Below, piece by piece: positions 9,446-39,634 of a DNA stretch of 64,000 nt. A model generated the notes under the pieces. The model was given only the letters and a program-made list of their open reading frames with translations, made no database searches and was not told the DNA's origin. This DNA comes from Frankiaceae bacterium (GTDB lineage Bacteria; Actinomycetota; Actinomycetes; BP-191). The translations under genes and the position numbers were made by a program. Position 1 is the first letter of the stretch; each line of letters starts with the position of its first letter. The stretch is taken from contig DATMES010000022.1 in assembly GCA_035556555.1 (NCBI GenBank), forward strand, positions 7,577 to 71,576, read 5' to 3'.

Positions 9446-10729
9446 ATGCCCGCCGTCGTCATCGTCGGGGCACAGTGGGGAGACGAGGGGAAGGGCAAGG
9501 CCACCGACCTGCTCGGTGACCGGCTCGACTACGTCGTCCGCTACAACGGCGGCAACAACGCCGGCCACACCGTCGTCATCGGCAGCGAGAAGTACGCGCT
9601 GCACCTGCTCCCCACCGGCATCCTCACGCCGACGCTCGTGCCGGTCATCGGCAACGGCGTCGTCGTCGACCTCGGCGTCCTCTTCGAGGAGATCGACCTG
9701 CTGGACGCGCGCGGCGTCGACACCTCGCGGCTGCTCATCAGCGCCAACGCGCACGTCATCACGCCGTACCACCGCACCATGGACAAGGTGGTCGAGAGGT
9801 TCCTCGGCAACGCCAAGCTCGGCACCACCGGCCGCGGGATCGGGCCCGCGTACGCCGACAAGATGTCCCGCGTCGGGGTGCGGGTGCAGGACCTGTTCGA
9901 CGAGAAGATCCTGCGGCAGAAGGTCGACGGCGCGCTCAAGGCCAAGAACCAGCTGCTCACCAAGGTCTACAACCGCAAGGCCATCGAGACCGACGCGGTC
10001 GTGGACGAGCTGCTGACGTACGCCGACCGCCTCCAGCCGCTCGTCGCCGACACCGCCCTGCTGCTGCACCACGCGCTGCTCGACGGCAAGAACGTCCTGC
10101 TCGAAGGCGGCCAGGCCACCATGCTCGACGTCGACCACGGGACGTATCCGTTCGTCACGTCGTCCAACCCGACCACCGGCGGCGCCTGCACCGGCTCCGG
10201 CATCGCGCCGCGGCACCTCACGCGCGCGATCGGCGTGCTCAAGGCGTACACGACGCGGGTCGGCGAGGGGCCGTTCCCGACCGAGCTGAACGACGAGTGG
10301 GGCACGCTGCTGCGCGAGAACGGCGGCGAGTTCGGCACCACCACGGGGCGGCCACGTCGGTGCGGGTGGTTCGACGCCGTCATCGCCCGCTACGCCGCGC
10401 GCATCAACGGCCTCACCGACTTCTTCCTCACCAAGCTCGACGTGCTCTCCGGCATCGAGCGCATCCCCGTCTGCGTCGGCTACCGCGTCGGCGGCACGGT
10501 CTTCGACGAGATGCCGGTGTCGCAGTCGGACTTCCACCACGCCGAGCCGGTGTACGAAGAGCTCCCCGGCTGGGACGACGACATCACCGGCGCAACGACG
10601 TTCGAGGACCTGCCGAAGAACGCTCAGGCGTACGTCAAGGCGCTGGAGGAGATGTCCGGCGCGCCCATCAGCGCCATCGGCGTCGGCCCCGGCCGTACGC
10701 AGACGGTGGTCGTCAGGGACTTGGTCTAA
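9446..10729 (+). CDS. purA: Adenylosuccinate synthetase
   Basis: GGAGGAG RBS; N-terminal [10 protein letters not shown]-loop; full-length colinear PurA. Confidence 0.95.
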
Positions 10730-12102
10730 CCGAGGTACCCGCTCTTCCGGAGCGTGTCCTCCGCTGCCTCGGTGAGCGCCTCCAGCGCCGCGGCGATGAT
10801 CTCAGTGACGAGGGCGCTGATCTTGACGCGCGCCACTGTACGTAGCGTCGGCTCGACGTCGCGTACGGCGAACTCAGCTCGGCGACCCATCCCGGCGACG
10901 AGGAATGCGGGGCAGTCGTCGTCCGTGGCGATCAGCGTGACGATGCGGATCGCCCGCCGCGCGCCCGCGGGCGGATGCGACTCCGCGTTGATCTGAACGA
11001 TGCGGGGATCCGCAACAGACGACCGGTAGCCCGGCGCATCGAACCGTCCTTGACGGACGTCCACCGTGAGCGACACACCCACCGGTAGCGACAGCGCGGC
11101 TACCTGCTCGGACACTTCTGAGTGAACTGCGTCGAGCAGGCGGTTCGCCACGGCATCAAGCTGGTCGTGGCTGAGCCCGCCAACACCCGTGACGAGGTCC
11201 CTGAGTCGCGCCAACGACCCTGCCTGGTCAGCCTGCGCGCCGGCTCGGACCGTGAGGACAGCAAGATCCACGGTCTCGATGACGCGCTCGACAACGAACG
11301 AGACGAACCTGCGTAGGTCACCGGAGTCGGCGGCCGCTAGGCAGTCGAGGTACTCGTCGCGGTCCTCGCGCAGCAGCATGAACGGCACGCGCAGCGCGCG
11401 GTACAGCGGAACCGACGCGAGCGCGCGGGAGACGCGGCCGTTCCCGTCGGCGAACGGGTGGATCGCCACGAACGAGTAATGCAGGTACGCCGCCTGCACC
11501 ACCGGATGAGCGGCGAGATACGACTCCGACGACAGCGACGCCACGAGCCGCGCCATCTCCGGCGCGACCATGTCCGGCGGCGCGTAGTGGTGGATCTGAC
11601 CCGTCGCGAGACTGGTCGGGTTGTTGGGCAGCGTCTTGTACTGCCCCTTCGGTAGCGGCTGCTCCTGCGGCCCCACCTCGGTGTGTACGACGTACGTGTC
11701 CTGGCTGCGGCAGAGCATCACGTGGAGCTCGCGAATCACGTGCTCGGTGACCGGCCGCGACTCGGCCACGAGGTCGAGCACCCACTCGTACGCCTCGATC
11801 TGGTCCTTGATGATCGCCGCGGCGTTGGGGCCTCGCTCGTTCGCCGCCGCCTCCCAGCCCGCGGCCTCGATGGCGACGGTGCGGGTGAAGCCACGATCGG
11901 TCGTGTAGAGCCCTTCGATGGCTCCGGTGTCGGTGCCCGCGTACCGCATCGCCGTCTTCACGGCGTGCTCGCGCGCCTCCTCGGTCGCCTCGGCGCGAGC
12001 CTGTTCGAGGAGCGCGGCGTACTGGTCGTACGTCGTCGGGTCGAACGGCACCGCTGTCCACGCCGAGATGTCGGGGAACGGCTGGTATCCCTCGTCCGCC
12101 AC
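10726..12102 (-). CDS. Fic/DOC-family protein, class II (N-terminal inhibitory helix), with an uncharacterised ~200-aa C-terminal domain
   Basis: Canonical Fic motif [12 protein letters not shown]; N-terminal TGAIEG matches the (S/T)xxxE(G/N) alpha-inh motif; stop overlaps purA stop. Confidence 0.85.
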
Positions 12103-18236: not shown

Positions 18237-19166
18237 GTGACACGGTGGCGCCGCCTGCACGCCGGCGCGGTCGTCCTGACCCTCGTCGGCGGCTGCGGCG
18301 CGCTCGGCCTGCGCGCGCTCTCCGACGCCAAGCCGGTGAGCGTCGACGACGCCGTGGCCCGCTTCCGCGAGGGGCAGAGCGCGACGCCGTCACCGGGGTC
18401 GCCGACGAGTCCGGCGCCCACGCCGTCCGCGACCGGCACCGCCGTCCGCGGCAGCAGCGCTCCGGCCAAGCCGGGGACGAGCGGCGCGCCCACCGCGACG
18501 GCCCGGCCAGGCGGCACCACAGCGCCCAAGCCGGGGACCGCGGGGCCGAGCCTCACCGCCGCGCCCGAGGGCGTGTACGTCTACGCCACCACCGGCCACG
18601 AGACCGGCGACGCCGGCCCGACCACGTCGCGGCACGACTACCCGTCGGAGACCACGTGGACGATCCGGCGTTCGGGCTGCGGGTCGAGCCTGCGCTGGGA
18701 GCCGGTCGAGGGCCGCTGGGACGACGTCACCGACTGCGGGGACGGCAGGACCAGCAAGATCAGGACGTACGACACGATGCACACGTTCTACGGGATCTCC
18801 GAGCGGATGACGTACCAGTGCTCGGGCGACTCGTGGCTCCGTCCGCCCTCGACCGCGGCGGGGTACACGTGGGAGTTCGACTGCGTGTCGGAGCGCGCGA
18901 AGACGCACACCGAGGCGCGCATCGTCGGGATCGAACGCGTCTCCGCCGGCGACGGCACGGTCCGCGCGCTGCACGTGCGCTTCGACACGACGCTGTCCGG
19001 CAGCTCCACGGGCACCAACCCGAGCGACTACTGGCTGGCGCTCGACGGGCCGTACATGATCCGCAAGACGGGGCGCGTGGACGCGACGGTGCGCACGGAG
19101 TTCGGGACGATCGACTACCACGAGGAGTACGACGTCCGCCTCGTCTCGCGCAAGCCGCGCACGTAG
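18237..19166 (+). CDS. Putative lipoprotein with a Pro/Thr/Ser-rich linker (309 aa)
   Basis: Lipobox LVGGC; low-complexity PT linker followed by a Cys-containing globular domain. Confidence 0.5.
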   Translation: MTRWRRLHAGAVVLTLVGGCGALGLRALSDAKPVSVDDAVARFREGQSATPSPGSPTSPAPTPSATGTAVRGSSAPAKPGTSGAPTATARPGGTTAPKPGTAGPSLTAAPEGVYVYATTGHETGDAGPTTSRHDYPSETTWTIRRSGCGSSLRWEPVEGRWDDVTDCGDGRTSKIRTYDTMHTFYGISERMTYQCSGDSWLRPPSTAAGYTWEFDCVSERAKTHTEARIVGIERVSAGDGTVRALHVRFDTTLSGSSTGTNPSDYWLALDGPYMIRKTGRVDATVRTEFGTIDYHEEYDVRLVSRKPRT

Positions 19167-19204: not shown

Positions 19205-19450
19205 GTGCCGCGCGTCGTCGTCGACGTCACGCTCAAGCCCGAGATCCTCGACCCGCAGGGCCAGGCCGTCGCCAACGCCCTGCCTTCGCTCGGCTTCACC
19301 GGCGTCGAGGGGGTCCGCGTCGGGAAGCACTTCGAGATCGACCTGTCGGGCGAGGTCGACGAGCAGCGGCTCGCCGACGTCCGCACGATGGCGGAGAAGC
19401 TGCTCGCCAACCCCGTCATCGAGGACTTCACCGTCCGAGTAGAGGAATGA
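19205..19450 (+). CDS. purS: Phosphoribosylformylglycinamidine synthase subunit PurS
   Basis: 81 aa; VVVDVTLKPEILDPQGQAV...GVEGVRVGKHFEIDL. Confidence 0.9.
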   Translation: MPRVVVDVTLKPEILDPQGQAVANALPSLGFTGVEGVRVGKHFEIDLSGEVDEQRLADVRTMAEKLLANPVIEDFTVRVEE

Positions 19451-20196
19451 CGCAGACCCCTGTGCCGCAGGTCGGCCAGGGGCGTCGCCCACCCGTCAAG
19501 CGCCCGTGGCCCCGGCTCCCGCTGTGGTTCTGGGCCGGCATCGGCGTGGTGCTCACCGGGTTCGTCGCCGTCGGCATCGTCGCGATCGTCACGATGGCGT
19601 CGTTCGAGGAGCAGCCCCTCTACGAACGCCGATCGCCCCCCATGGCCGGCGAGCAGTCGCACCACGTGGGCCGGGTCGTCCTGCCGGACGCGCCGGTGCG
19701 CGACGTCGAGTGCGGCGCGATCAGCGGCCTCAAGGTGCAGGGCGGCGCGGAGACCGGCGACCTGCTCGCCGAGGCACTGCGCGGGCTCTGCCGGCGGGTC
19801 GCCGCGGTGGACACGTACGGCGTCGAGCTGGCCGAGCGTATGAAGCGCCTCGCGGAGCAGGGCGCGGTGGTGTCGTTCGCCAACTTCGGGCGCACCGGCG
19901 AGCTGACCACGACGCTGCCGGGCACGCCGCCGCGCATCCTGCTCAACGACGCGTTCATCCGCGGCGGGGGGCAGTTCAAGGGGTTCCTGCTGCCGGAGCT
20001 GGCGCACGAGCTGTGGCACGCGGGCAGCGTCGACGTCACCGCCGAGGACGAGCTGACGGCGCGGAAGGTCGAGCTGGCTGCGTGCGCGCTGACGCCGTCG
20101 AGCGAGGCGTTCCGCGGGTGCACGGACGCGAAGCGGATCGTGGCCGAGGGCGACGAGAAGGCACTCGCGGGGCTGCGCGAGGCGGGATACCCCTAG
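19447..20196 (+). CDS. Membrane-anchored protein with an HExxH motif (putative Zn-dependent hydrolase), inserted between purS and purQ
   Basis: ATGA overlap with the purS stop; one N-terminal TM helix (LWFWAGIGVVLTGFVAVGIVAIV); LPELAHELWH contains HELWH. Confidence 0.55.
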   Translation: MTQTPVPQVGQGRRPPVKRPWPRLPLWFWAGIGVVLTGFVAVGIVAIVTMASFEEQPLYERRSPPMAGEQSHHVGRVVLPDAPVRDVECGAISGLKVQGGAETGDLLAEALRGLCRRVAAVDTYGVELAERMKRLAEQGAVVSFANFGRTGELTTTLPGTPPRILLNDAFIRGGGQFKGFLLPELAHELWHAGSVDVTAEDELTARKVELAACALTPSSEAFRGCTDAKRIVAEGDEKALAGLREAGYP

Positions 20197-20726
20197 GAGG
20201 GCTTCTTGCGCTCCGGCGGGAGCGCCGTCCACGTGATGGTGGCCTTGAACGTCCCCGTACCCCCGCGGTTGACGACCGCGAACGTGTAACGGCCCATCGG
20301 AAGCTGGTTGACCCGGAAGCTCAGGTGGTACTTGGTGAAGGTTTCGCTGTCCGGAAGCGGGCAGCACCCCACGATGTCGTGGCTGCGGTAGAAGTCGCCC
20401 TTGCTGGTGTACAGCACGAGCGCGCCGGCCATCGACGCGTCGAAGACGCCGCTGACGACGAACTCGCCCTTGGTCCTGCCCTTGGGGAGTGTGAGCCGGA
20501 GGTTGCGCACGCTGCAGCTCTGCTCGGTGCAGTCCTCGAGGACCGGGTCGATCTCGCCCTCGGTCGTGCCGGTGACCGGGACGGCGGCCGCGTCGAGCGT
20601 GCCGGACCACGTCCTCGACGTCGTCCGCTTGCCGTCCAGGGTGTACGTCCCCACAGCCGTCGCCGGCGACGACGCCAGCAGCGCGCTGACGGCGGTCGCG
20701 GCGAGGAGCACCCGGCGGACGTTCAC
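20193..20726 (-). CDS. Secreted hypothetical protein (178 aa)
   Basis: GTG start with AAGGGAGAG RBS; signal peptide VNVRRVLLAATAVSALLASSPATA; convergent overlap with the upstream gene. Confidence 0.5.
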   Translation of the reverse strand: MNVRRVLLAATAVSALLASSPATAVGTYTLDGKRTTSRTWSGTLDAAAVPVTGTTEGEIDPVLEDCTEQSCSVRNLRLTLPKGRTKGEFVVSGVFDASMAGALVLYTSKGDFYRSHDIVGCCPLPDSETFTKYHLSFRVNQLPMGRYTFAVVNRGGTGTFKATITWTALPPERKKPS

Positions 20727-20857
20727 GGCTCTCCCTTGCTGGGGGGTGAGAAAGCCTATTTCTGCGCCGATTGTGGGTTCTCCTTCCTGGCGCGTAAAGA
20801 CCCCGGCCCCCAGGTACGCTGGGACCGCACCCCTCCAGACCACGTCGAGGAGCCCGC

Positions 20858-21538
20858 ATGCCCGCCCGCGTCGGCGTCGTGACGTTCCCCGGATCGCTCG
20901 ACGACCGCGACGCGCTGCGCGCCGTCGAGCTGGCCGGCGGCGAACCCGTGAGCCTGTGGCACGCCGACCCGTCGCTGCACGGCGTGGACGCCGTGATCCT
21001 GCCGGGCGGGTTCTCGTACGGCGACTACCTCCGCTGTGGCGCCATCGCCCGCTTCTCGCCGGTGATGGAGGCCGTCATCGCGCACGCGCGCTCCGGCGGC
21101 CCGGTCCTCGGCATCTGCAACGGCTTCCAGGTGCTCTGCGAGTCGCACCTGCTCCCCGGCGCGCTCATGCGCAACGGCGGCCGCCGCTTCACCTGCCTCG
21201 ACCAGCGGCTGCGGATCGAGTGCGCCAAGACCGCGTGGACGACGGCGTACGCCGAGGGCGACGAGGTCACGATCGTCCTCAAGAACGGCGAGGGCCGCTT
21301 CTACGCCGACGAGCGCACGCTCGACGCGCTCGAGGCCGAGGGGCGGGTCGTCGCGCGGTACCTCGACGGCAACCCCAACGGCTCGCTCCGCGACATCGCC
21401 GGCATCACCAACGAGGACGGCAACGTCGTCGGCCTCATGCCGCACCCCGAGCACGCGGTCGAGGCGCTGACCGGCCCCGGCACCGACGGGCTCGGCTTCT
21501 TCACGAGCGTCCTGGAGCACGTCGGCCTCAAGGCGTAG
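20858..21538 (+). CDS. purQ: Phosphoribosylformylglycinamidine synthase I (glutaminase subunit)
   Basis: Class I glutamine amidotransferase; GICNGFQ nucleophile and PHPE motif. Confidence 0.95.
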
Positions 21539-21568: not shown

Positions 21569-21637
21569 GTTACTGGTGAGTAGCGACGTCGTGGCTCACC
21601 AGTTCGTGCTGGGCCGTTGTCGCTACTCACCAGTAAC
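21569..21637. repeat. Palindromic extragenic element, copy 2 (19-bp arms GTTACTGGTGAGTAGCGAC / GTCGCTACTCACCAGTAAC, with a nested 9-bp alternative stem)
   Basis: Inverted repeat read directly; same family as 2389-2458. Confidence 0.7.
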
Positions 21638-21664: not shown

Positions 21665-22459
21665 GTGCCTGGTCTGGTCGGCGCCCTGTCGGTGCTGGGC
21701 ATGGCCGTCGTCGCGCCGCTCGGGCTCCGCCGCCTGGCGACGCCGGGCGTGGCCCGCCTGGTCCCGTTCTGGCCGTTCCTCGCGCTCGTCGCGGGCTGGG
21801 GTCTGCTGCTGGAACGCGGCGCCGTCGCGGTGGCTCTCGTGCTGCCGTACGCCGTCGCCTGCGCTGCCGTCGCGGCGCTCGCTGCACTGCGGTTCCTGCG
21901 CGACCGGCGGCTCGGCACGCGCGACATGGTGGCGGGGTTCGCCTGCGCGGCGCTGTTCGTCGCGGCGACCAGCCTCGTGGCGGAGCGCGCGGGAATCGAG
22001 TTGCTCGGCTTCACCCTCGCCATCCACGGGCTGACCGTGGCGCACTTCCACTACGCGGCGTTCGCGGCGGTGCTCGTCGCGGGGCTCACCTGGCAGGCCG
22101 CGCCGAGCCGTCTCACGACCGCGGGCGCGTGGGCGGTGCCGGTCGGGACCGCGATCACGTTCGCGGGCTTCTTCACCGGCAACGCCGTCGAGCTCGTCGG
22201 CGCCACGGTGCTGACGGGCGGGCTGCTGCTGACGTCGTACGCCCTGCTTCGCCTGCGCCCCCACGCGTTCCTCGTCGTCGCCGCGCTGGCCATCCCGCTG
22301 ACGATGGCGCTGGCGCTGTGGTGGGCGGCGGGCGAGGCGTTCGGGTACGGCCACCCGACTCTGCGGCAGATGGCCGCGACCCACGGCGTCGCGAACGCGC
22401 TCGGCGTCGGCCTCTGCGGCCTGCTCGGCTGGCGTTCGGTGACGCCGCCATCGCTGTAG
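21665..22459 (+). CDS. Integral membrane protein (264 aa, about 8 TM), unknown function
   Basis: GTG start; hydrophobic throughout; lies between purQ and purL. Confidence 0.5.
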   Translation: MPGLVGALSVLGMAVVAPLGLRRLATPGVARLVPFWPFLALVAGWGLLLERGAVAVALVLPYAVACAAVAALAALRFLRDRRLGTRDMVAGFACAALFVAATSLVAERAGIELLGFTLAIHGLTVAHFHYAAFAAVLVAGLTWQAAPSRLTTAGAWAVPVGTAITFAGFFTGNAVELVGATVLTGGLLLTSYALLRLRPHAFLVVAALAIPLTMALALWWAAGEAFGYGHPTLRQMAATHGVANALGVGLCGLLGWRSVTPPSL

Positions 22460-22510
22460 AGACGGCTCCGGCGCCCACCGAAGACAGCGGGCGCCGGGGC
22501 CGTCACTGGA

Positions 22511-22753
22511 TCAGCCGTCGTACGGCGGACAGTCCCAGGTCGGCTCACCTGCGACGTAGACGTCCCCCTGCGAGGTCACCGTGACCACGCCGTAGCTGCC
22601 GGCGAGGCTGGTGAAAGCCGGGCACGCCGCCTCGTCGGCATGGCCCGACCAGCAGCGCGGGTTGCCCGGGTTGGTCAGGTGACATGCGTCTGCCGGGGTG
22701 GTGCCGTACAGCGCACCACCCGCGAGCACCGTGACGAGCAGGATCCTCCTCAT
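22511..22753 (-). CDS. Small secreted Cys-containing protein (80 aa), truncated paralog of the two downstream genes
   Basis: Signal peptide MRRILLVTVLAGGALYG; shares the N-terminal ACHLTNPGNPRC motif with the paralogs. Confidence 0.45.
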   Translation of the reverse strand: MRRILLVTVLAGGALYGTTPADACHLTNPGNPRCWSGHADEAACPAFTSLAGSYGVVTVTSQGDVYVAGEPTWDCPPYDG

Positions 22754-22755
22754 CG

Positions 22756-23208
22756 TCACGTCCCCTCGATCGCGCCGGCGACTTGTGCGGTGACGGGCCC
22801 GCCACATGGATTGCCGACAGGGGACGTCACGACGAACACGGCGGCACCCGCGCCGTCGATGTCTCCCGTAGTCGTGATGACCGCCGTGGCGCCGACACGT
22901 AGCCAGGTGAAGTTGACGTCGATCGCGCCGGTGACCGAGCCGGTTGCGCTGCCACTGATGACGCAGGTCGCGTCAGCCGGGTCGACGACGGTGTACGAAG
23001 CGCTGGCGCTCCCGAAAGCAGCCCCAACGACCGTCAGTGTGGCGGTTCCGGGACGCGGACCTGGGCAGCCGAAACAGCCGATGCTGGCTACACCAGTGAA
23101 GCCCACAGCACACCGGGGATTCAGCGGTTGGGTCCGGCAGGCGCTCGCTACGGGAGCGGCGTGCGCCACGCTGCCGGTGAGCAACGTGGCGAGCAAGAAC
23201 AGCTTCAT
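22756..23208 (-). CDS. Secreted hypothetical protein, paralog A (150 aa)
   Basis: GGAGGA RBS; signal peptide; ACRTQPLNPRC...GCFGCPGPRPGTA...ITTTGDIDGAG...TSPVGNPCGGP. Confidence 0.6.
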   Translation of the reverse strand: MKLFLLATLLTGSVAHAAPVASACRTQPLNPRCAVGFTGVASIGCFGCPGPRPGTATLTVVGAAFGSASASYTVVDPADATCVISGSATGSVTGAIDVNFTWLRVGATAVITTTGDIDGAGAAVFVVTSPVGNPCGGPVTAQVAGAIEGT

Positions 23209-23224
23209 TCATCCTCCATTGCTG

Positions 23225-23695
23225 TTAGGTACCGGCCACCGCGCCGGCGACTTGCGCAGTGATCGGGCCGCCGCAGGGGTTACCGACCGGCGACGTGATG
23301 ACGAACGTGGCGACACCCGCGCCGTTGATGTCGCCCGTGGTCGTGATGACTGCCACGGCGCCGAGGCGCACCCAGTTGAAGTTGACGTTGACGGCACCCG
23401 TCACGTTGCCCGTCGCCGTGCCGCTGATGATGCAGGTCGTGTCAGCCGGTAGGACCGCCGTGTAGTCAGCGTGGGCGCTTCCGTTGATGACGACGCCGCT
23501 CGTGACCGACAGGCTGGCGGTACCGGGCCGTGGGCCAGGGCAGCCGAAGCAACCCATCTGGGTTGTTCCGGTGAACGCAGCGGAGTGAACGTGGCACCGG
23601 GGATTCAGCGGTTGGGTGATGTGGCAGGCGCTCGCCGAGGGAGCGCCGTACGCCACGCTGCCGGCGAGCAGCGCGAGTAGAGCGACTTTGCGCAT
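23225..23695 (-). CDS. Secreted hypothetical protein, paralog B (156 aa)
   Basis: GGAGGA RBS before the internal ATG (MRKVALLALLAG); family identity with paralog A is high. Confidence 0.6.
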   Translation of the reverse strand: MRKVALLALLAGSVAYGAPSASACHITQPLNPRCHVHSAAFTGTTQMGCFGCPGPRPGTASLSVTSGVVINGSAHADYTAVLPADTTCIISGTATGNVTGAVNVNFNWVRLGAVAVITTTGDINGAGVATFVITSPVGNPCGGPITAQVAGAVAGT

Positions 23696-23805
23696 TCTTC
23701 CTCCGTGGAAAAGCAAGGCTGTCTCTCACTCCGGCTGTATGAGTGAGTCAGCGTGACTGCGCAGCGGACCGCCCCGGAAGTAGTCCCGGGGCGGCCTCGG
23801 GTGCG

Positions 23806-24405
23806 CTACGGGAAGAGACGGTCGTTGGTCTCCATGCAGTCCGTCGGCTCCTGGATCGCGACAGCGAGCGCGAACTCGACCGGGCACGCGGCGACGTCGA
23901 AGTAGCCCCAGTCGGCCCCGCCGTCACGCCAGACCTCGAGCACCGGGAGCGTGCTCGGGCCCACGTTTCCCTCGAGGAACTGGATGCTCATCGTGGTGGT
24001 GCCGGTCTTGACGCAGACAGCACTGGCCGCGAGCCCGATCGAGATCTGGACGGGTACCGGGTCGGCGACCGTGGCGAGCACGGTGGGGCAGAGCGACGCG
24101 TCGTCGTCGACGTCCACGTCGGGCAGCGTGCCGCCGGACGCGACGTCCGCGATGATCGTGAGGCCCCCGAGCGGGACCTGTACCCACGTCCACCGGACGC
24201 AGACGACGGTGCGGGTCGAGCTCTGGCTGTCGATCCAGACGCGGTCGTCGGGCTGCTCGTTGAGGCCACCAGTGAAGAGCCTGGTGGACTCCGTCGCGCG
24301 GCAGTCGTCGGACGTGGCGGCGACGGCCGTGCTGGCCGGCAGCAACGTCGTGGTCAGGACGGCGGTGGCTGCCACGGCAGCACAGCGCAGGATTGCCTTT
24401 CGCAT
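23806..24405 (-). CDS. Secreted hypothetical protein (199 aa, 6 Cys)
   Basis: AAGGGGG RBS; signal peptide MRKAILRCAAVAATAVLTTTLLPASTAVAA. Confidence 0.5.
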   Translation of the reverse strand: MRKAILRCAAVAATAVLTTTLLPASTAVAATSDDCRATESTRLFTGGLNEQPDDRVWIDSQSSTRTVVCVRWTWVQVPLGGLTIIADVASGGTLPDVDVDDDASLCPTVLATVADPVPVQISIGLAASAVCVKTGTTTMSIQFLEGNVGPSTLPVLEVWRDGGADWGYFDVAACPVEFALAVAIQEPTDCMETNDRLFP

Positions 24406-24628
24406 GGTTCCCCCTTCTGGGTGTGAGATTCCCCCGAAACGGGACGAACCGTACGGGGGACCTCACTACGGTGTACAGGTTTGCTTGCCGATGAAGTACG
24501 GAAATGTGCGAAAGTAGTCAGCCCCGCCGCGAAATGGGTGATATCTCACCCGAATGGGCGCGGGTCGCGAATTCCGCCTCGCCTGGACGGCGGGGCGCCC
24601 GCCGCTCGGCGTCGTCTAGCCTGAGCGT

Positions 24629-26839
<2,211 letters not shown>

Positions 26840-32810: not shown

Positions 32811-34939
32811 GTCACGCTCCTCGCCCGCGGCACCGTGTAGCGCAGCGTCGTACCCGTACCGACGTGGCTCTCCACGCCGATCTCGCCACCCTGTGCCTCG
32901 ACAAGGGCACGGCAGATGTACAGGCCCAGACCGGTGCCTTTCTCTCCCCCGGACGGCGTAGCGAGGCGGGAGAACTTTCCGAACAGCCGCGGCAGGTCCT
33001 CCGGCGGGATTCCCGGACCGCGGTCGCACACGCGCACCTCGAGAAAGTCCCCCACGACGCCCACAGAGACCCGGATCGGGTACTCCGGCGGGGAGAACTT
33101 CTGCGCGTTCGAGATGAGGTTGGTCAGCACCCGCCACTGGCGGTCCTCGTCGCCGAGCGCCGTGGGGAGGTCCTCCGGTACGTCGGCGACGACGTTGCGG
33201 TCGTCGCGCGCGGCGTTCATCTCGTCCACGGTGCGGGTGACGAGCGCGCCGAGGTCGAACGGCGCGATGTCGTACGGGAAGTCGCCCGACTCGATCCGCG
33301 CGACCTGCAGCACGTCCTCGACGAGGACCGACAACCGCTTGGTGTTCTTGCTCGCGACGCCGAGGAGCTCCCGCTTCATCTCGTCCGGCAGGTCGTCCCA
33401 GCGCTGGAGCACCGTGTCGACGTAGCCGGCGATGACGGTCATCGGGGAGCGCAGGTCGTGGGCGACGACGCCGACGAACTCGTTCTTCAACGCGTCCAGC
33501 TCGCGCAGCCGCGCCGTCGTCTCGCGCTCGTACTCGAGCCGCGCCAGCGTGTAGAGCGCGCCGCCGACGACGTTGACCAGCTCGCCGACGATGACGAGGT
33601 CCTCCGGCGAGAACGTGTCCGGCTCGGTCGCCGCGAAGCTCAGCAGCGCGCGCGGCTGACCCGTGACGACGACGGGCGCCGCGACGCAGGACCGGACGCC
33701 GAGCCGGACGGCGTGCTCGCCGAACGCCGCCGCGATGTCGTTCTGCAGGAACGGCCCCCGCGCCTCGAGGATCGCGTGGAGCAAAGGGTCGTCGAGGGAG
33801 ACCTCGCTGCCGATCGGCAGGGCGGTCATGTCCTTGCCGCAGACCGCGACGACGGTCGTCACCTCGCCGTCGACGATCGACAGCGTCGCCCGGTCGAACC
33901 GCAGCACGCTCGACACCGCGCCGGAGAACGCGTCGAACCCCTCACCGAGGCTCGTCGCCGTCGCGACGGCGAGGTACGCCGCGCGCAGCACCGCGTCGCG
34001 CCCAGTGCGCCGTACGAGCACGTCCTGGAACGCCAGCCGCCGCGCCGCCTCCTCCTCCAGCTTGGCGGCGAGCCCCTCGGCGACGAGCCTGCGGCGGCGC
34101 GCGTGCTGGCCGAGCGACGTCGCGACCGCGAGCAGCGCCGAGAAGACGAGGCCGATGACGAGTACGCCGCCGGCCGCCCGGTCGAGCGAGATGGTGCGCG
34201 TGGCGTCGGTGCCGAGGTTGGTCAGCGCCTGCCAGAGCACGAGCGTCGCCGCGAGCGCGCCCACCGCCACGGGGATGGGCAGCCAGCGCGGCAGACCGTC
34301 GGTGTTGGCGAGGTTCCACGCGGTCCCGAGGTAGCCCATGGAGAGCAGCAGCAGGAGGAACGCCGTCAACGGCGCCATCGCGGTGCTGGAGCGCCACGTG
34401 TAGGCGGTCGTGACGTCGGCGGCGTACCCGAACAGCGCGACCAGCGCGAGGCCGGCCACGAGCGAGGCGGCCACGCCGACCGCGAGCGCGGCGCGGCGGG
34501 ACCGTTCGGATCGCGCGAACCAGAACGCGCTCGCGCCGAGCAGGGCGAAGCAGGCGGCGGAGTTGCCCGGCATCCGGCCCGGCGACTCGCCGGTCTTCAG
34601 CCACGGGTCGAACAGCAGCCGGTCGATGCCGAGGTCGACGCCGGCGACGTACTCCACGACGGTCGCGGCACCGGCGAACGTCACCAGCGCGATCGGCACG
34701 GTCGCGAAGCGGACCCAGCGGGACAGCGTGAGAAGCAGGCCGACGCCGAGCAGCCCGAGGCAGAGCGCGGTGTTGAACTGCATCGGCACCTGGTCGGCGC
34801 GCAGCCGCACCAGCTCGACGCGGTGCGTCAGCCAGCCGGCGAGCACCACCGCGCCGCCCAGCACCGCGACGACGGCGGCGGCCTCGGCGGGAAGGCGGGC
34901 GCTACGGGGCGGCAGCGGTGCCGACGCGACCGACGCCAC
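32807..34939 (-). CDS. Sensor histidine kinase: polytopic membrane N-domain, GAF, HisKA, HATPase_c
   Basis: H-box EFVGVVAHDLRSP; N, G1 and G2 boxes; GGGAGG RBS before the GTG. Confidence 0.8.
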   Translation of the reverse strand: MASVASAPLPPRSARLPAEAAAVVAVLGGAVVLAGWLTHRVELVRLRADQVPMQFNTALCLGLLGVGLLLTLSRWVRFATVPIALVTFAGAATVVEYVAGVDLGIDRLLFDPWLKTGESPGRMPGNSAACFALLGASAFWFARSERSRRAALAVGVAASLVAGLALVALFGYAADVTTAYTWRSSTAMAPLTAFLLLLLSMGYLGTAWNLANTDGLPRWLPIPVAVGALAATLVLWQALTNLGTDATRTISLDRAAGGVLVIGLVFSALLAVATSLGQHARRRRLVAEGLAAKLEEEAARRLAFQDVLVRRTGRDAVLRAAYLAVATATSLGEGFDAFSGAVSSVLRFDRATLSIVDGEVTTVVAVCGKDMTALPIGSEVSLDDPLLHAILEARGPFLQNDIAAAFGEHAVRLGVRSCVAAPVVVTGQPRALLSFAATEPDTFSPEDLVIVGELVNVVGGALYTLARLEYERETTARLRELDALKNEFVGVVAHDLRSPMTVIAGYVDTVLQRWDDLPDEMKRELLGVASKNTKRLSVLVEDVLQVARIESGDFPYDIAPFDLGALVTRTVDEMNAARDDRNVVADVPEDLPTALGDEDRQWRVLTNLISNAQKFSPPEYPIRVSVGVVGDFLEVRVCDRGPGIPPEDLPRLFGKFSRLATPSGGEKGTGLGLYICRALVEAQGGEIGVESHVGTGTTLRYTVPRARSVT

Positions 34940-35134
34940 AGCCACCTCCCTGGGACCCCTGGAGCCGTTGCGTGGATCTTGCCCCCCTTTGGTCTCCCGA
35001 TGCGACAGGTTGGCCGAACGTTCGCGGCGGCGCCGCGCGGCATGCGAGACTCGGCGACCACGAGCAGCAACGGCGCTGCGACCCGTCCGGCCCGCTTCCT
35101 TCCCCAGGCTGCGTACCGCATTGGAGCCCGTTGC

Positions 35135-38100
35135 ATGACCCGCACCCCGTACCACCTCGACCCCGAACGCGACGCCTGCGGCATCGGGTTCGTCGCCGAC
35201 GTGCGCGGGCGGCGTACGCACGAGCCCGTCGCCGAGGCGCTGAACGCCCTCGGCAGGGTCGAGCACAGGGGCGCGATCGCCGACGACCCGCAGGCCGGCG
35301 ATGGCGCGGGCCTGCTCGTGCCGATCGACGCGGCGTTCTACGCGGCCCGGCTGCCTGGCCTCCAGCCCGACGACGTGGAGCTGCTGGGCATCGCGATGGC
35401 GTTCCTGCCTGCCGACGTCGAGGGCGGGGAGCCGATCCAGGCCGCCGCGCGGCGCGCCTTGGAGGACGCCTGCCTGCACGAGGGCATCGGCGTCTCCGGC
35501 TGGCGGGTCGTGCCCGTCGATCCCGAGGCGCTCGGCGAGCACGCGCGCAGGCACGCGCCGCGCATCGAGCAGGCGGTCCTGCTGCGCTCGACGTCGGTGC
35601 CCGTCGACGAGGCCGAGCGGCGCGCGTTCCGCGCCCGCAAGCGCTTCGCGCGGACGGTGGCGGCGCGCGGCATCCCCGCGTACCTCGCGTCGATCTCGTT
35701 CCGCACGGTGACGTACAAGGCGCTCTGCGCGGCGGAGCAGCTCGGCGCGTTCTACGCCGACCTGACGGATCCGGAGCTGACGGGGTCGTTCGCGGTGTTC
35801 CACCAGCGGTACTCGACCAACACGACGCCGACGTGGACCCGCGCGCAGCCGTTCCGCTTCCTCTGCCACAACGGCGAGATCAACACCATCCAGGGCAACG
35901 TCAACTGGATGAGCGCCCGCGAGGGGTCGCTCGGCACCGGCGACCTCATCGAGGAGGAGCTGGTCCGCCCGGTCATCGAGCCCGACGGCTCCGACTCGGC
36001 GATGCTCGACAACGCCGTCGAGCTGCTCGTGCGCGCGGGCCGCGACATCCGGCACGTCATGGCGATGCTGGTGCCCGAGGCGTGGGAGGACGCGGGCCAC
36101 CTGCCCGCCGACGTGCGCGACTTCTACGAGTACCACGCGGGCCTGACCGAGCCGTGGGACGGCCCCGCGGGGCTGGTCTTCACCGACGGCGAGCGGGTCG
36201 GCGCCTGCCTGGACCGCAACGGCCTCCGCCCGCTCCGGTGGGCGGCGTCACAGGACGGCCTCGTCGTCTGCTCGTCCGAGGCCGGCGTCGTCAACCTCTC
36301 GGGCCGCGGCACCGTCACGCGAGGCCGCCTCGGGCCGGGCCAGATGATCTGCGTGGACCCGCGGTACGGCCTGCAGACCGACGCCGACATCAAGGGCTGG
36401 CTCGCGCGGCGGCGCCCGTACGGCGAGTGGCTGCGCAACGGCCTGCGCCGCGTCTCCGCCGGCGCGCCCGTGCGTGAAGCCGGACCGGCGCTGGCGCTGC
36501 GGCAGGTGGCGTACGGCTACACCCGCGAGGAGCTCACGACCGTCCTGCGCTCGATGGGCACGACCGGCAAGGAGCCGGTCTCGTCCATGGGCGACGACAC
36601 CGCGCTGTCGCTGCTGTCGGGGACGCGGCGGTCCGTCGCGTCGTACCTGAAGCAGCGGTTCGCGCAGGTCACGAACCCCGCGCTCGACCACCTGCGCGAG
36701 CGCACCGTCATGTCACTGCGTACGCGCCTCGGCATGCTGGAGCCGCTGCTCACCGAGCGGCCCGAGGCGGCGCGCGGCGTGGAGCTGGCGACGTTCCTGC
36801 TGACGCCGGCGGGGCTCGACGAGCTGGTCGGCGCGTCCGAGGTGCTCGGGCGCTACACGCGCCTCGACGCGACGTTCCCCGTGGCCGACGGCCCGGCGGG
36901 ACTGGAGAGCGCGCTCATCAAGCTGTCGTACGCCGCCGAGTCGGCGATCCTCGCCGGCTCGGAGCTCGTCGTGCTGGACGACTCGGCCGTCTCACCCGAC
37001 CGCGCGCCGGTGCCGATGCTGCTCGCCGTCGGCGCCGTGCACCAGCACCTCATCGACGGGCAGCTGCGCTCGCTCGCGTCGGTCGTCGTGGACTCCGGCG
37101 AGCCGCGCGAGGTGCACCACTTCGCGACGCTGCTCGGGTACGGCGCCGAGGCCGTCTGCCCGCGCCTCGCGCTGGAGACCGTGGCCGCGCTCGCCACCAA
37201 GACCGGCGGTCCCGAGGCGGCGGGGCCCGCGCAGGAGGCGTACCGGCACGCGGTCGAGGACGGCGTGCTCAAGGTGATGTCGAAGATGGGCATCTCGTGC
37301 CTCGACTCGTACCGCGGGGCGCAGATCTTCGACGCCGTGGGCCTGTCCGCGGCCGTCGTCGACCGCTGCTTCCGCGGCACGGTGTCGCCGATCGGCGGCG
37401 CGGGGTTCGCGGACCTCGCGGAGGACGTGCTGTACCGGCACCAGAAGGCGTACGACGCCAAGCCGGTCCTCGACAACCCCGGCTACGTGAAGTGGCGGCG
37501 CGGCGGCGAGTACCACCACAACAACCCCGACGTCATCCAGGCGCTCCAGTCGCTGACGGTCCCGGATGCGCCACCGGTGCCGGGCGCCGACAAGGAGCTG
37601 GCCGCGGCCCACTCGCTGCGGACGGCCGTGCAGAAGGGCGAGCGGGCGGCGTACGACCGGTTCGCCGCGCTCGTCGACGACCGGCCGCCCACCAACCCGC
37701 GCGACCTGCTGGAGGTCATCCCCGCGGCGACCCCGGTGCCGCTGGACGAGGTCGAGCCGGTGGCGTCGATCGTGAAGCGGTTCTCGACCGGCGCGATGTC
37801 GCACGGGTCCATCGGCGCGGAGGCGCACGAGACGCTGGCGCGGGCCATGAACATGCTCGGCGCCAAGAGCAACTGCGGCGAGGGCGGCGAGGACCCGGCG
37901 CGGTTCCGCAACGACCGCAACAGCAGGATCAAGCAGATCGCGTCGGGGCGGTTCGGGGTGACGCCGGAGTACGCGGCGTTCGCCGACGAATTGCAGATCA
38001 AGGTGTCGCAGGGCTCGAAGCCCGGCGAGGGCGGGCAGATCCCAGGCCACAAGGTGTCGGAGGAGATCGCGCGGCTGCGGCACACGACACCCGGCGTCGG

Positions 38101-39634
38101 TCTCATCTCCCCGCCGCCGCACCACGACATCTACTCGATCGAGGACCTCTCGCAGCTCATCTACGACCTCAAGCAGGTCAACCCGCGCGCGGACGTCTCG
38201 GTCAAGCTCGTCGCGTCGGCCGGCGTCGGGACGATCGCGGCCGGCGTGGCGAAGGCGTTCGCCGAGGTCGTGCACGTCTCGGGCACCGACGGCGGCACGG
38301 GCGCCTCCGCGCTGTCGTCCATCAAGAACGCCGGCCTCGACTGGGAGTTCGGGCTCGCGGAGGCGCAGCAGTCGCTCCTCGCCAACGGCCTCCGCTCCCG
38401 CGTGCGGCTGCGCGTCGACGGCGGCTTCAAGACGGGCCGCGACGTCATCATGGCCGCGCTGCTGGGGGCCGACGAGTACTCGTTCGGCACGGCCGCGCTG
38501 CTCGCCGAGGGCTGCATCATGGTCCGCGCCTGCCACCGCAACACCTGCCCCGTCGGCATCGCGACGCAGGACCCCGAGCTGCGGAAGAAGTTCACGGGCA
38601 CGGCCGAGCAGGTCGCCGACTACCTGCGCTTCGTGGCCGAGGAGGTGCGCGAGACGCTCGCGGTGCTGGGCTTCCGTTCGCTGGACGAGGCGATCGGGCG
38701 TACGGAGTCGCTGCGGCAGCGGCGTACCGACGACCCGCGCGCCGAGTCGCTCGACCTGCGCCCGCTGCTCGCGGTGCCCGCGGAAGGCCCTCGTCGGTTC
38801 GTGGCGCCGGTGTCGATCCAGCGCCAGCACGCGCCGCTGGGCGACCGGCTCTTCGACGTCGCGTGGCCGGTGGTCTCGACCGGCGGCACGCTCGAGGTCG
38901 ACTGGGACATCCGCAACGGCGACCGGTCGTTCGGGGCGCGGCTCGGCGGCGCGATCGGTCGCGCGTTCGGGGCGGCGGCGCCTCCCGGCGCGGTCACGGC
39001 ACGGCTGACCGGCGTAGCGGGGCAGAGCCTCGGGGCGTTCCTCACCGAGGGCATCCGCGTCGAGCTGACCGGCGAGGCCAACGACTACGTCGGCAAGTCC
39101 ATGGGCGGCGGCGTCGTCGCGATCACGCCGCCCGCCGACGACGCGGGCGACGCCGTGCTGGCCGGCAACACCGTGCTGTACGGCGCCACCGGCGGCCGCG
39201 TGTTCATCGGCGGGCGCGCCGGCGAGCGGTACGCCGTCCGCAACTCCGGCGCCGTCTCCGTCGTCGAGGGCGTGGGCGACCACCTGGCCGAGTACATGAC
39301 CGGCGGCACCGTCGTCGTCCTCGGCCCGACGGGCCGCAACGTCGGCGCGGGGATGAGCGGCGGGGAGGTCTTCGTCCACGACCTCGACCAGGCCCGCGTC
39401 AACCCCGCGATGGTGCGCGTGGACGCGCTCACCGCCGAGCAGGCGGGGCGCGTGAAGGCTCTGCTCGAGGAGCACCTCGCCGCGACCGGCTCGCGCCGCG
39501 CCGCCGCGCTGCTCGCCGACTGGGCGGTCGAGGCGGGCCGGTTCCTGCGCGTCGCGCCGACGCCGCCGGTCGTCGAGCTCGACGTCGAGGACGAGGAGAA
39601 GGTGGAGGCGTCGGCGACGGGTTCGACCGGATAA
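35135..39634 (+). CDS. gltB: Glutamate synthase large subunit
   Basis: 1499 aa; N-terminal CGIGFVA amidotransferase nucleophile; FMN, Fe-S and GXGXG domains. Confidence 0.95.
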   Translation: MTRTPYHLDPERDACGIGFVADVRGRRTHEPVAEALNALGRVEHRGAIADDPQAGDGAGLLVPIDAAFYAARLPGLQPDDVELLGIAMAFLPADVEGGEPIQAAARRALEDACLHEGIGVSGWRVVPVDPEALGEHARRHAPRIEQAVLLRSTSVPVDEAERRAFRARKRFARTVAARGIPAYLASISFRTVTYKALCAAEQLGAFYADLTDPELTGSFAVFHQRYSTNTTPTWTRAQPFRFLCHNGEINTIQGNVNWMSAREGSLGTGDLIEEELVRPVIEPDGSDSAMLDNAVELLVRAGRDIRHVMAMLVPEAWEDAGHLPADVRDFYEYHAGLTEPWDGPAGLVFTDGERVGACLDRNGLRPLRWAASQDGLVVCSSEAGVVNLSGRGTVTRGRLGPGQMICVDPRYGLQTDADIKGWLARRRPYGEWLRNGLRRVSAGAPVREAGPALALRQVAYGYTREELTTVLRSMGTTGKEPVSSMGDDTALSLLSGTRRSVASYLKQRFAQVTNPALDHLRERTVMSLRTRLGMLEPLLTERPEAARGVELATFLLTPAGLDELVGASEVLGRYTRLDATFPVADGPAGLESALIKLSYAAESAILAGSELVVLDDSAVSPDRAPVPMLLAVGAVHQHLIDGQLRSLASVVVDSGEPREVHHFATLLGYGAEAVCPRLALETVAALATKTGGPEAAGPAQEAYRHAVEDGVLKVMSKMGISCLDSYRGAQIFDAVGLSAAVVDRCFRGTVSPIGGAGFADLAEDVLYRHQKAYDAKPVLDNPGYVKWRRGGEYHHNNPDVIQALQSLTVPDAPPVPGADKELAAAHSLRTAVQKGERAAYDRFAALVDDRPPTNPRDLLEVIPAATPVPLDEVEPVASIVKRFSTGAMSHGSIGAEAHETLARAMNMLGAKSNCGEGGEDPARFRNDRNSRIKQIASGRFGVTPEYAAFADELQIKVSQGSKPGEGGQIPGHKVSEEIARLRHTTPGVGLISPPPHHDIYSIEDLSQLIYDLKQVNPRADVSVKLVASAGVGTIAAGVAKAFAEVVHVSGTDGGTGASALSSIKNAGLDWEFGLAEAQQSLLANGLRSRVRLRVDGGFKTGRDVIMAALLGADEYSFGTAALLAEGCIMVRACHRNTCPVGIATQDPELRKKFTGTAEQVADYLRFVAEEVRETLAVLGFRSLDEAIGRTESLRQRRTDDPRAESLDLRPLLAVPAEGPRRFVAPVSIQRQHAPLGDRLFDVAWPVVSTGGTLEVDWDIRNGDRSFGARLGGAIGRAFGAAAPPGAVTARLTGVAGQSLGAFLTEGIRVELTGEANDYVGKSMGGGVVAITPPADDAGDAVLAGNTVLYGATGGRVFIGGRAGERYAVRNSGAVSVVEGVGDHLAEYMTGGTVVVLGPTGRNVGAGMSGGEVFVHDLDQARVNPAMVRVDALTAEQAGRVKALLEEHLAATGSRRAAALLADWAVEAGRFLRVAPTPPVVELDVEDEEKVEASATGSTG

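Follow-up and report, generated by a model that had tools for sequence, protein, structure and literature searches.

In a 64-kb window from a 256,792-bp contig of an uncultured Frankiaceae bacterium (DATMES010000022.1; the window is the whole stretch of 64,000 nucleotides (nt) that was analyzed), four small genes lie on the minus strand between purQ and purL. We view this island as a conserved module, confined to the Frankiaceae lineage, whose four products, here termed A to D, are predicted to be exported and to contain disulfide bonds. Two of the proteins, B and C, belong to an undescribed sequence family of known fold class, with mature proteins of ~125 residues that are predicted to form beta-barrels. 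Our preferred explanation, to which we assign a probability of about 40%, is that these barrels are binders or carriers of small ligands outside the cytoplasm, with a variable segment that would tune specificity and with the D-linked module held together via an N-terminal loop. The genes and their three copies of this loop, termed the Cys-loop tag, are as follows.

23806-24405, minus strand: gene D, open reading frame (ORF) of 199 amino acids (aa), GC content at third codon positions (GC3) 0.93
23594-23626, minus strand: Cys-loop tag of C, CHITQPLNPRC, directly past the predicted ASA cleavage site (regular expression and alignments)
23225-23695, minus strand: gene C, ORF of 156 aa with a GGAGGA ribosome-binding site, GC3 0.83
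23110-23139, minus strand: Cys-loop tag of B, CRTQPLNPRC (regular expression and alignments)
22756-23208, minus strand: gene B, ORF of 150 aa with a GGAGGA ribosome-binding site, GC3 0.77
22652-22684, minus strand: Cys-loop tag of A, CHLTNPGNPRC (regular expression and alignments)
22511-22753, minus strand: gene A, ORF of 80 aa, GC3 0.86

All four ORFs were found where a first-pass annotation of the sequence had placed them, and the ORF list, the annotation of the depositor (VNQ77_07240/45/50/55) and independent gene callers concur. A second assembly carrying the same DNA (L009) gave an identical set of gene calls of 199, 156, 150, and 80 aa.

The first-pass annotation had also assigned a signal peptide to each protein, and our own judgement, by inspection and not by a dedicated predictor, agrees with this. 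All four have a basic n-region, a hydrophobic core of 13-15 residues and an AxA-type cleavage site, and were found to have the following composition: A, MRR/ILLVTVLAGGALY/..ADA; B, MK/LFLLATLLTGSVA/..ASA; C, MRK/VALLALLAGSVAY/..ASA; and D, MRKAILR/CAAVAATAVLTTTLL/..AVA. By inspection, A to D satisfy the layout of a signal peptidase I (SPase I) substrate, and all relatives keep the same layout.

Three of the genes had been described as tandem paralogs. This holds for B and C, which are identical at 105 of 156 residues (67%) over their full length (BLASTP E 5e-71), but not for A, where the match to C is limited to residues 1-55, comprising the signal peptide and the Cys loop (44% identity, E 6e-12). 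At the nucleotide level B and C are 73% identical, and the dN/dS ratio between the paralogs, a comparison proposed with the annotation, was 0.37 (Nei-Gojobori dN 0.24, dS 0.64), which is consistent with the pair being under purifying selection. B matched the hidden Markov model (HMM) of the barrel family with an E of 4e-47. A run of 23 nt (B 23111-23133, C 23595-23617) that encodes TQPLNPRC of the Cys loop is identical between the two genes, compared to 73% overall, and points to either gene conversion at this spot or constraint on the nucleotide sequence itself. In a neighbor-joining tree the barrel domain of B was found to be nearer to P0003 (78%), a gene from another contig that belongs to the home locus described below, than to C (73%), and P0004, which is linked to a D-like gene, grouped with P0006 from the home locus. 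The resolution of the tree is weak; it suggests an old duplication, or exchange or gene conversion between home-locus and D-linked copies. The B/C duplication is specific to this organism among those that share the island on the side of purQ or YndJ.

The barrel family extends well beyond the window. When C was used as the query against 5.8 billion proteins in a word-indexed search, 17 proteins of 145-162 aa were returned, and a profile search of 1.84 billion cluster representatives (50% identity) returned 229 at E≤1e-3 and 132 at E≤1e-10. Most members are 135-180 aa long and carry a signal peptide, and a few are ~300 aa long with two domains or an extension. Every labelled member came from metagenome-assembled genomes (MAGs) of Frankiaceae or "Mycobacteriales bacterium," and a scan of one genome per species, covering 185,579 species, gave four family loci, all from Frankiaceae MAGs. 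Tandem arrays on other contigs contain two to seven copies. The earlier view of a lineage-restricted family of secreted proteins that grows by tandem duplication is therefore well founded. The family is specific to the lineage but not to this genome or this position, as it comprises 229 clusters at 50% identity and its commonest locus lies elsewhere.

The paralogs were not found to be widely conserved genes of known function. Scans against Pfam, NCBIfam, PADLOC, and PHROGs gave no significant match for A to D, and likewise none for 115 family members, for ten longer members or for neighboring proteins. The family profile gave only noise when compared to the sequences of the PDB, as did a 209-aa protein from locus L007 that is described below. 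In the literature on DUF3224 barrels and on the Frankia secretome we found no description of the barrel family.

Members of the family share the motifs CFGC(G), C88, F-x-W-T-R-x-G (WxRxG) and (T/S)-P-x-G-x-P-C-G (SPVGNPCGG). All motifs quoted in the first-pass annotation are present, and those of the barrel are family-wide, but the N-terminal ACxxTQPLNPRC loop occurs in only 3 of 168 family sequences (B, C, and P0004). All four cysteines are present in 78 of 115 members, while 22 lack both C49 and C52 but have C88 and C141. Since the cysteines are lost together across the family, this indicates putative disulfide pairs between C49 and C52, in the CFGC turn, and between C88 and C141. The mature regions are 54% Gly+Ala+Thr+Val, with 7.7% charged residues and 0.3% Lys. 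The most variable segment, with the highest column entropy and with insertions and deletions, comprises residues 60-83, i.e., strands 2 and 3 and the hairpin that joins them. Two members of ~320 aa, P0037 and P0043, have a C-terminal extension that opens with a Cys-flanked, Asp-rich motif, CSDGxDNDLDGxxDYPADxGC, which resembles a calcium-binding motif and is followed by a Cys-rich domain without Pfam match.

The fold predicted for the family, with good confidence, is an up-and-down beta-barrel of eight strands and not the beta-sandwich that had been expected. The AlphaFold2 model based on 115 sequences has a predicted local distance difference test score (pLDDT) of 87.8, with a core above 95, 115 residues at 90 or above, and eight strands. 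It replaced a first model from 17 sequences that was unreliable (pLDDT 57). In comparisons to solved structures by Foldseek, E was 5e-3 or weaker and sequence identity at most 15%. One strand face consists of 28% Gly, 17% Ala, 13% Val, and 10% Phe, and carries F41, I47, L62, F78, F106, W108, R110, and F131; the other is nearly uncharged, with 28% Thr, 11.5% Ser, and 5% Asn. From the alternation of residues, and not from coordinates, we infer an interior that is hydrophobic, rich in Gly and Ala and may contain a cavity, and an exterior laddered with Thr. A barrel in an outer membrane, like that of OmpA, was considered and rejected; the aromatic residues appear to lie on the apolar face, with Thr and Ser on the opposite one, as in soluble barrels that have a hydrophobic core and the reverse of what is seen in membrane barrels. 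Neither an outer nor a mycolate membrane is known from Frankiaceae.

The best structural neighbors include dirigent proteins, allene oxide cyclase, PloI4, PyrI4, AbnU, and Cyc15, and the barrels could accordingly act outside the cell on a secreted metabolite, either as enzymes or as catalysts of the dirigent type (e.g., cyclases or Diels-Alderase-like proteins). CFGC would then be a redox-active CxxC, the spacing found in thiol-disulfide oxidoreductases. Locus L011 also lies near small genes that weakly resemble lanthipeptide leaders. We regard this as highly improbable. CFGC is missing in 22 of 115 members, the family has no sequence similarity to these enzymes, and no biosynthetic gene cluster was found beside it in the window or in the home locus. 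Moreover, the known barrel Diels-Alderases are cytoplasmic whereas the members of the family carry signal peptides.

The Cys-loop tag lies immediately behind the AxA site, has the consensus C-x(3-4)-P-x-(N/D)-P-x-C and gives a loop of 10-11 residues in A, B, and C. It is carried by A, B, and C of the window, by two genes of locus L010, three of L007 and one of L020, and by P0170, and all carriers adjoin D-like genes wherever the flank is visible. A search with the regular expression through six-frame ORFs of the 64-kb window and of loci L001-L017 (~140 kb) gave no carriers other than genes that accompany D. Across three types of tagged protein the 5' ends of the genes, including the ribosome-binding site, can be aligned at the DNA level.

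Protein D itself is exported and has six cysteines in its mature part, all of them invariant in its relatives, of which only four are known (51-55% identity). No match was found for D in Pfam, NCBIfam, PDB sequences, PADLOC, or PHROGs, and a metagenome scan for further homologs gave one chance match, in an unrelated large protein. D had been described as unrelated to the other three genes. This is correct with respect to sequence, as D is unrelated to the B/C profile, but not with respect to synteny; the order D, B/C, A recurs beside purQ or YndJ in L010 and L021. In L010 a D-like gene is followed by one B/C member (P0004) and an 88-aa ortholog of A, and the latter directly abuts the 3' end of purQ, which is encoded on the other strand. 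In L021 the C-terminus of a B/C member is followed by an 83-aa ortholog of A (P0170) and the 3' end of YndJ, with a convergent A/YndJ junction as in the window. Judged from gene order, the position of the island beside purQ or YndJ is inherited in at least three organisms.

The tag is also found beside D-like genes that are accompanied by other proteins. In L007/L008 the D-like gene is followed by genes for three exported proteins (209, 170, and 222 aa), of which two end in a module termed WDCPPY, and in L020 by a gene for yet another exported protein. The tag is therefore seen on at least two further unrelated domain types (L007 1341-3209 and L020 985-1326), namely the 209/222-aa WDCPPY proteins and a protein of >114 aa starting MNQLALMV...ACHLLFPWDPQCW. 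The tagged 170-aa protein of L007 was tried as a divergent barrel, but the match was not significant (HMM score 1.0 compared to -4.8 ± 4.5 for shuffled sequences; hhalign probability 6%). D is the apparent constant partner of the module and is itself untagged.

Gene A had been considered a truncated copy of B/C. It was found instead to encode a conserved protein of 80-88 aa with a C-terminal module of its own, CP..LAG.YG.VT...GDVY..GEP.WDCPPY, which also ends the 209- and 222-aa proteins of L007/L008. Its orthologs are full length, with 71% identity for P0170 (83 aa) and 49% for the L010 gene (88 aa), and since they share the conserved C-terminal module A is, as read from the alignments, a minimal "tag + WDCPPY module" protein and not a truncated barrel.

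The cysteine that opens the loop might alternatively serve as the +1 residue of a lipobox, V/S-A-S-A-C, so that B and C would be lipoproteins with a lipid anchor on the outside of the membrane. This concerns localization only and fits either function of the barrels. The permissive Gram-positive lipobox is [LIVMFESTAG][LVIAM][IVMSTAFG][AG]C, and positions -4 to +1 fit it in B, C, the A-like gene of L010, the 209-aa gene of L007 and the L020 gene, where Cys directly follows A-S-A. P0004 (ANA-H-C) and P0170 (AHA-H-C), on the other hand, have a His before the Cys, A has an Asp at position -2, and none of the three fits the lipobox. The Cys is always partnered by another Cys 9-11 residues on, as expected for a disulfide loop, and the c-region is long (7-8 residues) and resembles that of SPase I substrates. 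In addition, the tag is absent from 165 of 168 family sequences, a few of which have other N-terminal Cys pairs, while most are devoid of Cys around the cleavage site. We find lipoproteins an improbable interpretation.

Small, secreted, Cys-rich proteins that are restricted to one lineage and vary in copy number and in one loop could also be antagonistic or interaction factors, i.e., bacteriocin- or effector-like proteins that diversify under conflict, which would explain both the arrays and the rarity of the family. A GC3 below that of the neighboring genes and weak fold matches to the fungal effector-type barrels Alt a 1 and PevD1 agree with such a role. We nevertheless consider it very unlikely, as the dN/dS of 0.37 between the paralogs is that of purifying and not of diversifying selection, and the position beside purQ or YndJ is stably inherited in several organisms. 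Neither immunity, export or processing genes nearby nor a PADLOC or PHROGs signal were found.

The commonest surroundings of the family, here termed the home locus, include an ATP-binding cassette (ABC) transporter of the LIV type. This neighborhood was found in eight independent contigs (L001, L002, L013, L014, L016, and L017, and partly L005 and L011) and spans ~13 kb (L001 3538-16465). It begins with dnaE, in some contigs extra family members, an extracytoplasmic function (ECF)-type sigma factor on the opposite strand and a GAF protein. An exported protein of ~200 aa, a lipoprotein, one to three family members and a 918-aa protein that is anchored in the membrane at both its N- and its C-terminus follow. 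The locus ends with a Peripla_BP_6 binding protein, only distantly LivJ-like, a fused LivHM-like permease/ATPase, in some contigs a further family member, and a second ATPase. The family member embedded before the second ATPase is present in L001 and L011/L012 and absent from L005 and L017. The genes from that of the 918-aa protein to that of the second ATPase, with the embedded family member included, are linked by overlaps of 1-4 nt between stop and start codons. Nearly all parts of the locus other than the transporter have no Pfam match, and the 918-aa protein, which gave only noise against the PDB sequences, is without known relative. The largest array was found in L013 (1495-10091), where seven barrel copies, located on both strands and within 10 kb, surround the genes for the sigma factor and the GAF protein. 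At L011 7258-8103, a few kb from barrel members, four tandem genes of 55-60 aa lie next to a gene for a pyridoxal phosphate (PLP)-dependent decarboxylase, and one of the four has a weak match to a lanthipeptide-leader Pfam family.

This locus bears on two other explanations. In the first, the barrels are a structural coat of the envelope or surface, like chaplins, rodlins, or hydrophobins, in which they would pack against one another, the wall or polysaccharide, with the arrays providing bulk or variant subunits and with D and A being minor or anchoring components. The extreme composition of the mature regions, the high content of Thr (28%) and Ser (11.5%) on one strand face and the arrays of up to seven copies in 10 kb agree with this, as do the neighbors, since an ECF-type sigma factor together with a GAF regulator, a lipoprotein and one large membrane-anchored protein is typical of loci for envelope remodeling. 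Single members also gave weak, non-significant Pfam matches to DUF4402 and to Enas, an endospore-appendage family. A family member that is translationally coupled within an ABC importer operon is, however, odd for a bulk structural protein, and the conserved F-x-W-T-R and CFGC are suggestive of a site rather than of a surface for packing. Chaplins and rodlins gave no match, and repeats and self-assembly signals were not detected. On the whole we consider a coat unlikely.

In the second, the Cys loop is an unrecognized modular tag for capture by D, anchoring or assembly, and the barrel is an accessory subunit of LIV-type ABC importers outside the cytoplasm. Such a tag may mark barrels and WDCPPY proteins as well as one or more further domain types. 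We know of no accessory component of that kind for LIV-type ABC importers, and we think this combination is rather doubtful.

We prefer to view the barrels as ligand binders or carriers. Located outside the cytoplasmic membrane, they would bind or carry a small ligand; the conserved and probably interior face, with F106, W108, R110 and much Gly/Ala, is compatible with a cavity, and residues 60-83 would tune specificity between paralogs. The Cys loop of A, B, and C would most likely dock to D or to a common partner, giving one surface complex.

Several observations weigh against this explanation. The similarity in fold is at the level of the class (Foldseek E never below 5e-3), and this class spans enzymes, binders and membrane barrels, while the inward face was assigned from the alternation of residues alone. 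No ABC transporter or homolog of the 918-aa protein was found in the 64-kb window, which lacks the partners from the home locus; the link to transport is for this reason one by family and not by locus. The association of the tag with D was seen in four or five loci from related organisms and could result from shared ancestry alone. D, A, and the 918-aa protein are without detectable homologs of known function. Finally, the GC3 of A to C (0.77-0.86) is below the 0.95-0.99 of their neighbors and could mean low expression.

Around the island the following genes were identified.

20858-21538, plus strand: purQ (GATase_5, E 1e-33)
21665-22459, plus strand, convergent with A: gene for a YndJ-like integral membrane protein (PF14158, E 7e-54)
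24629-26839, plus strand: purL (AIRS, AIRS_C, and FGAR-AT_linker domains)

The island does lie between purQ and purL, as had been stated, but the YndJ-like gene is located in the same interval. The complete order is purA, a Fic gene on the opposite strand, purD, purE, purC, a 309-aa orphan, purS, two orphans (one on the minus strand) and purQ, followed by YndJ, the island, purL, an MDMPI/SCP gene and purF. To speak of an island embedded in a housekeeping operon was an overstatement, because the pur genes do not form one compact operon here and have several non-pur genes, encoded on either strand, among them. We found no evidence for any connection between the island and purine synthesis, and regard the purQ/purL position as an inherited insertion site that is functionally unconnected to it. 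The GC content of the window is ~70-77%, and GC3 is 0.99 for purQ and 0.98 for purL compared to the lower values listed above for A to D. Signatures of mobile elements were sought around the island, and flanking direct repeats, tRNA-like features and Rfam features were all absent.

Some of the non-pur genes in this region are orphans as well. A secreted orphan of 309 aa (18237-19166, plus strand) interrupts the pur cluster, and purS is found at about 19211-19450. A membrane-anchored orphan of 249 aa (19447-20196, plus strand) overlaps by 4 nt with the end of a gene for a secreted orphan of 216 aa (20193-20843, minus strand), both without a match in Pfam or NCBIfam. The latter was tried as a fifth member of the barrel family and rejected, as its similarity is confined to the signal peptide. 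Between purA and purD lies a gene for a Fic/DOC-domain protein of 458 aa (10726-12102, minus strand). Elsewhere in the window a very long ORF (32864-39634; 2256 aa, GC3 0.89) is overlapped by a long antisense ORF.

The spacing of the genes and the following features point to the transcription of the island.

23759-23806, minus strand: GC-rich hairpin directly past the stop codon of D, -40.8 kcal/mol, z -4.8
22461-22504, minus strand: GC-rich hairpin in the A/YndJ gap, -44.3 kcal/mol, z -6.5
24406-24628: divergent D/purL spacer of 223 nt, with a GC content of 0.645-0.66 compared to 0.70-0.77 around it, the lowest nearby

The gap between C and B is 16 nt and holds GGAGGA, and that between B and A is 2 nt. 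As described in the first-pass annotation, GGAGGA is present 6-7 nt upstream of the start codons of B and C; D has GGGGGA. For neither hairpin was any of 200 dinucleotide shuffles as stable. The one after D lacks a U-tract and is probably a terminator nonetheless, which would make D monocistronic. That in the A/YndJ gap, where 51 nt separate the convergent stop codons, was also found as an inverted repeat and is a probable bidirectional terminator. The tiny C-B and B-A gaps and the strong hairpins behind D and A make it probable that the island is transcribed as two units, one of D alone and one of C-B-A. The D promoter should be located in the D/purL spacer, and perhaps the purL promoter as well; Rfam gave no match there. 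Scans for sigma-70 consensus promoters and for consensus terminators found nothing, as expected in a high-GC actinobacterium, and after D the terminator scan was empty because the hairpin has no T-run. Between the stop codon of purQ and the start of YndJ (21569-21637) there is a perfect inverted repeat of 19 nt (GTTACTGGTGAGTAGCGAC / GTCGCTACTCACCAGTAAC), with 31 nt in its loop, which could be a terminator or a regulatory hairpin.

Taken as a whole, the island is an instance of ordinary lineage-specific "dark matter" of secreted proteins and not a new kind of system. If the analysis is correct, it adds a definable new domain family of 229 clusters without a relative in Pfam, NCBIfam, or PDB, with a predicted fold, a disulfide map and a set of genomic partners. 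A small secreted barrel that is translationally coupled in a LIV-type ABC importer operon would hint at an accessory component in Gram-positive transporters, and the N-terminal loop would be a candidate tag tying unrelated exported proteins to one partner. Should the proposed relation between tag and D be true, this would amount to a new small-scale system for surface display or sorting in uncultured Frankiaceae. Because all members come from uncultured soil Frankiaceae, the practical impact will be limited as long as there is neither an isolate nor a means of heterologous expression.

Among known systems, the proteins with an allene oxide cyclase (AOC)-like barrel share the eight-stranded antiparallel beta-barrel that is predicted for the new family. 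The nearest structural neighbors are DUF3224 proteins (2q03, 2ooj), dirigent proteins (7r5z, 5lal), and allene oxide cyclase (1z8k), followed by the barrel Diels-Alderases and cyclases PloI4 (7x80), PyrI4 (7dvk), AbnU (7dvi), and Cyc15 (8of7). Sequence identity to these AOC-barrel-like neighbors is 4-15%, and the HMMs Dirigent (PF03018), Allene_ox_cyc (PF06351), and DUF3224 (PF11528) gave no match to B and C (E≤1) or to the 115 members (E≤0.1). In contrast to the bacterial AOC-like relatives, which are cytoplasmic, the new family is Sec-exported, with two conserved Cys pairs and a Thr/Ser-rich, uncharged face. Avidin and streptavidin gave a lower structural match than the AOC-like barrels and no HMM or sequence match; the new family differs from them in having disulfides and arrays of paralogs. 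OmpA (N-domain), NspA, PagL, OmpW, and designed transmembrane barrels served as the comparison set of eight-stranded outer-membrane and membrane barrels.

With respect to the tag, the LPXTG/sortase, PEP-CTERM/exosortase, and dockerin/cohesin systems offer an analogy, as there, too, a short motif is carried by unrelated exported proteins, which here would cluster with an untagged D. They differ in that the tag is in our case an N-terminal disulfide loop, and D has no similarity to sortases, exosortases or cohesins. Chaplins and rodlins resemble the new family in being small, secreted, low in charge and rich in Gly, Ala, Val, and Thr, with a conserved Cys pair and multiple paralogs in actinobacteria. 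The chaplin HMM (PF03777) matched neither A to D nor any of the 115 family members, and unlike these amyloid-forming proteins the new family is predicted to form a closed barrel, with one member located inside an ABC-transporter operon.

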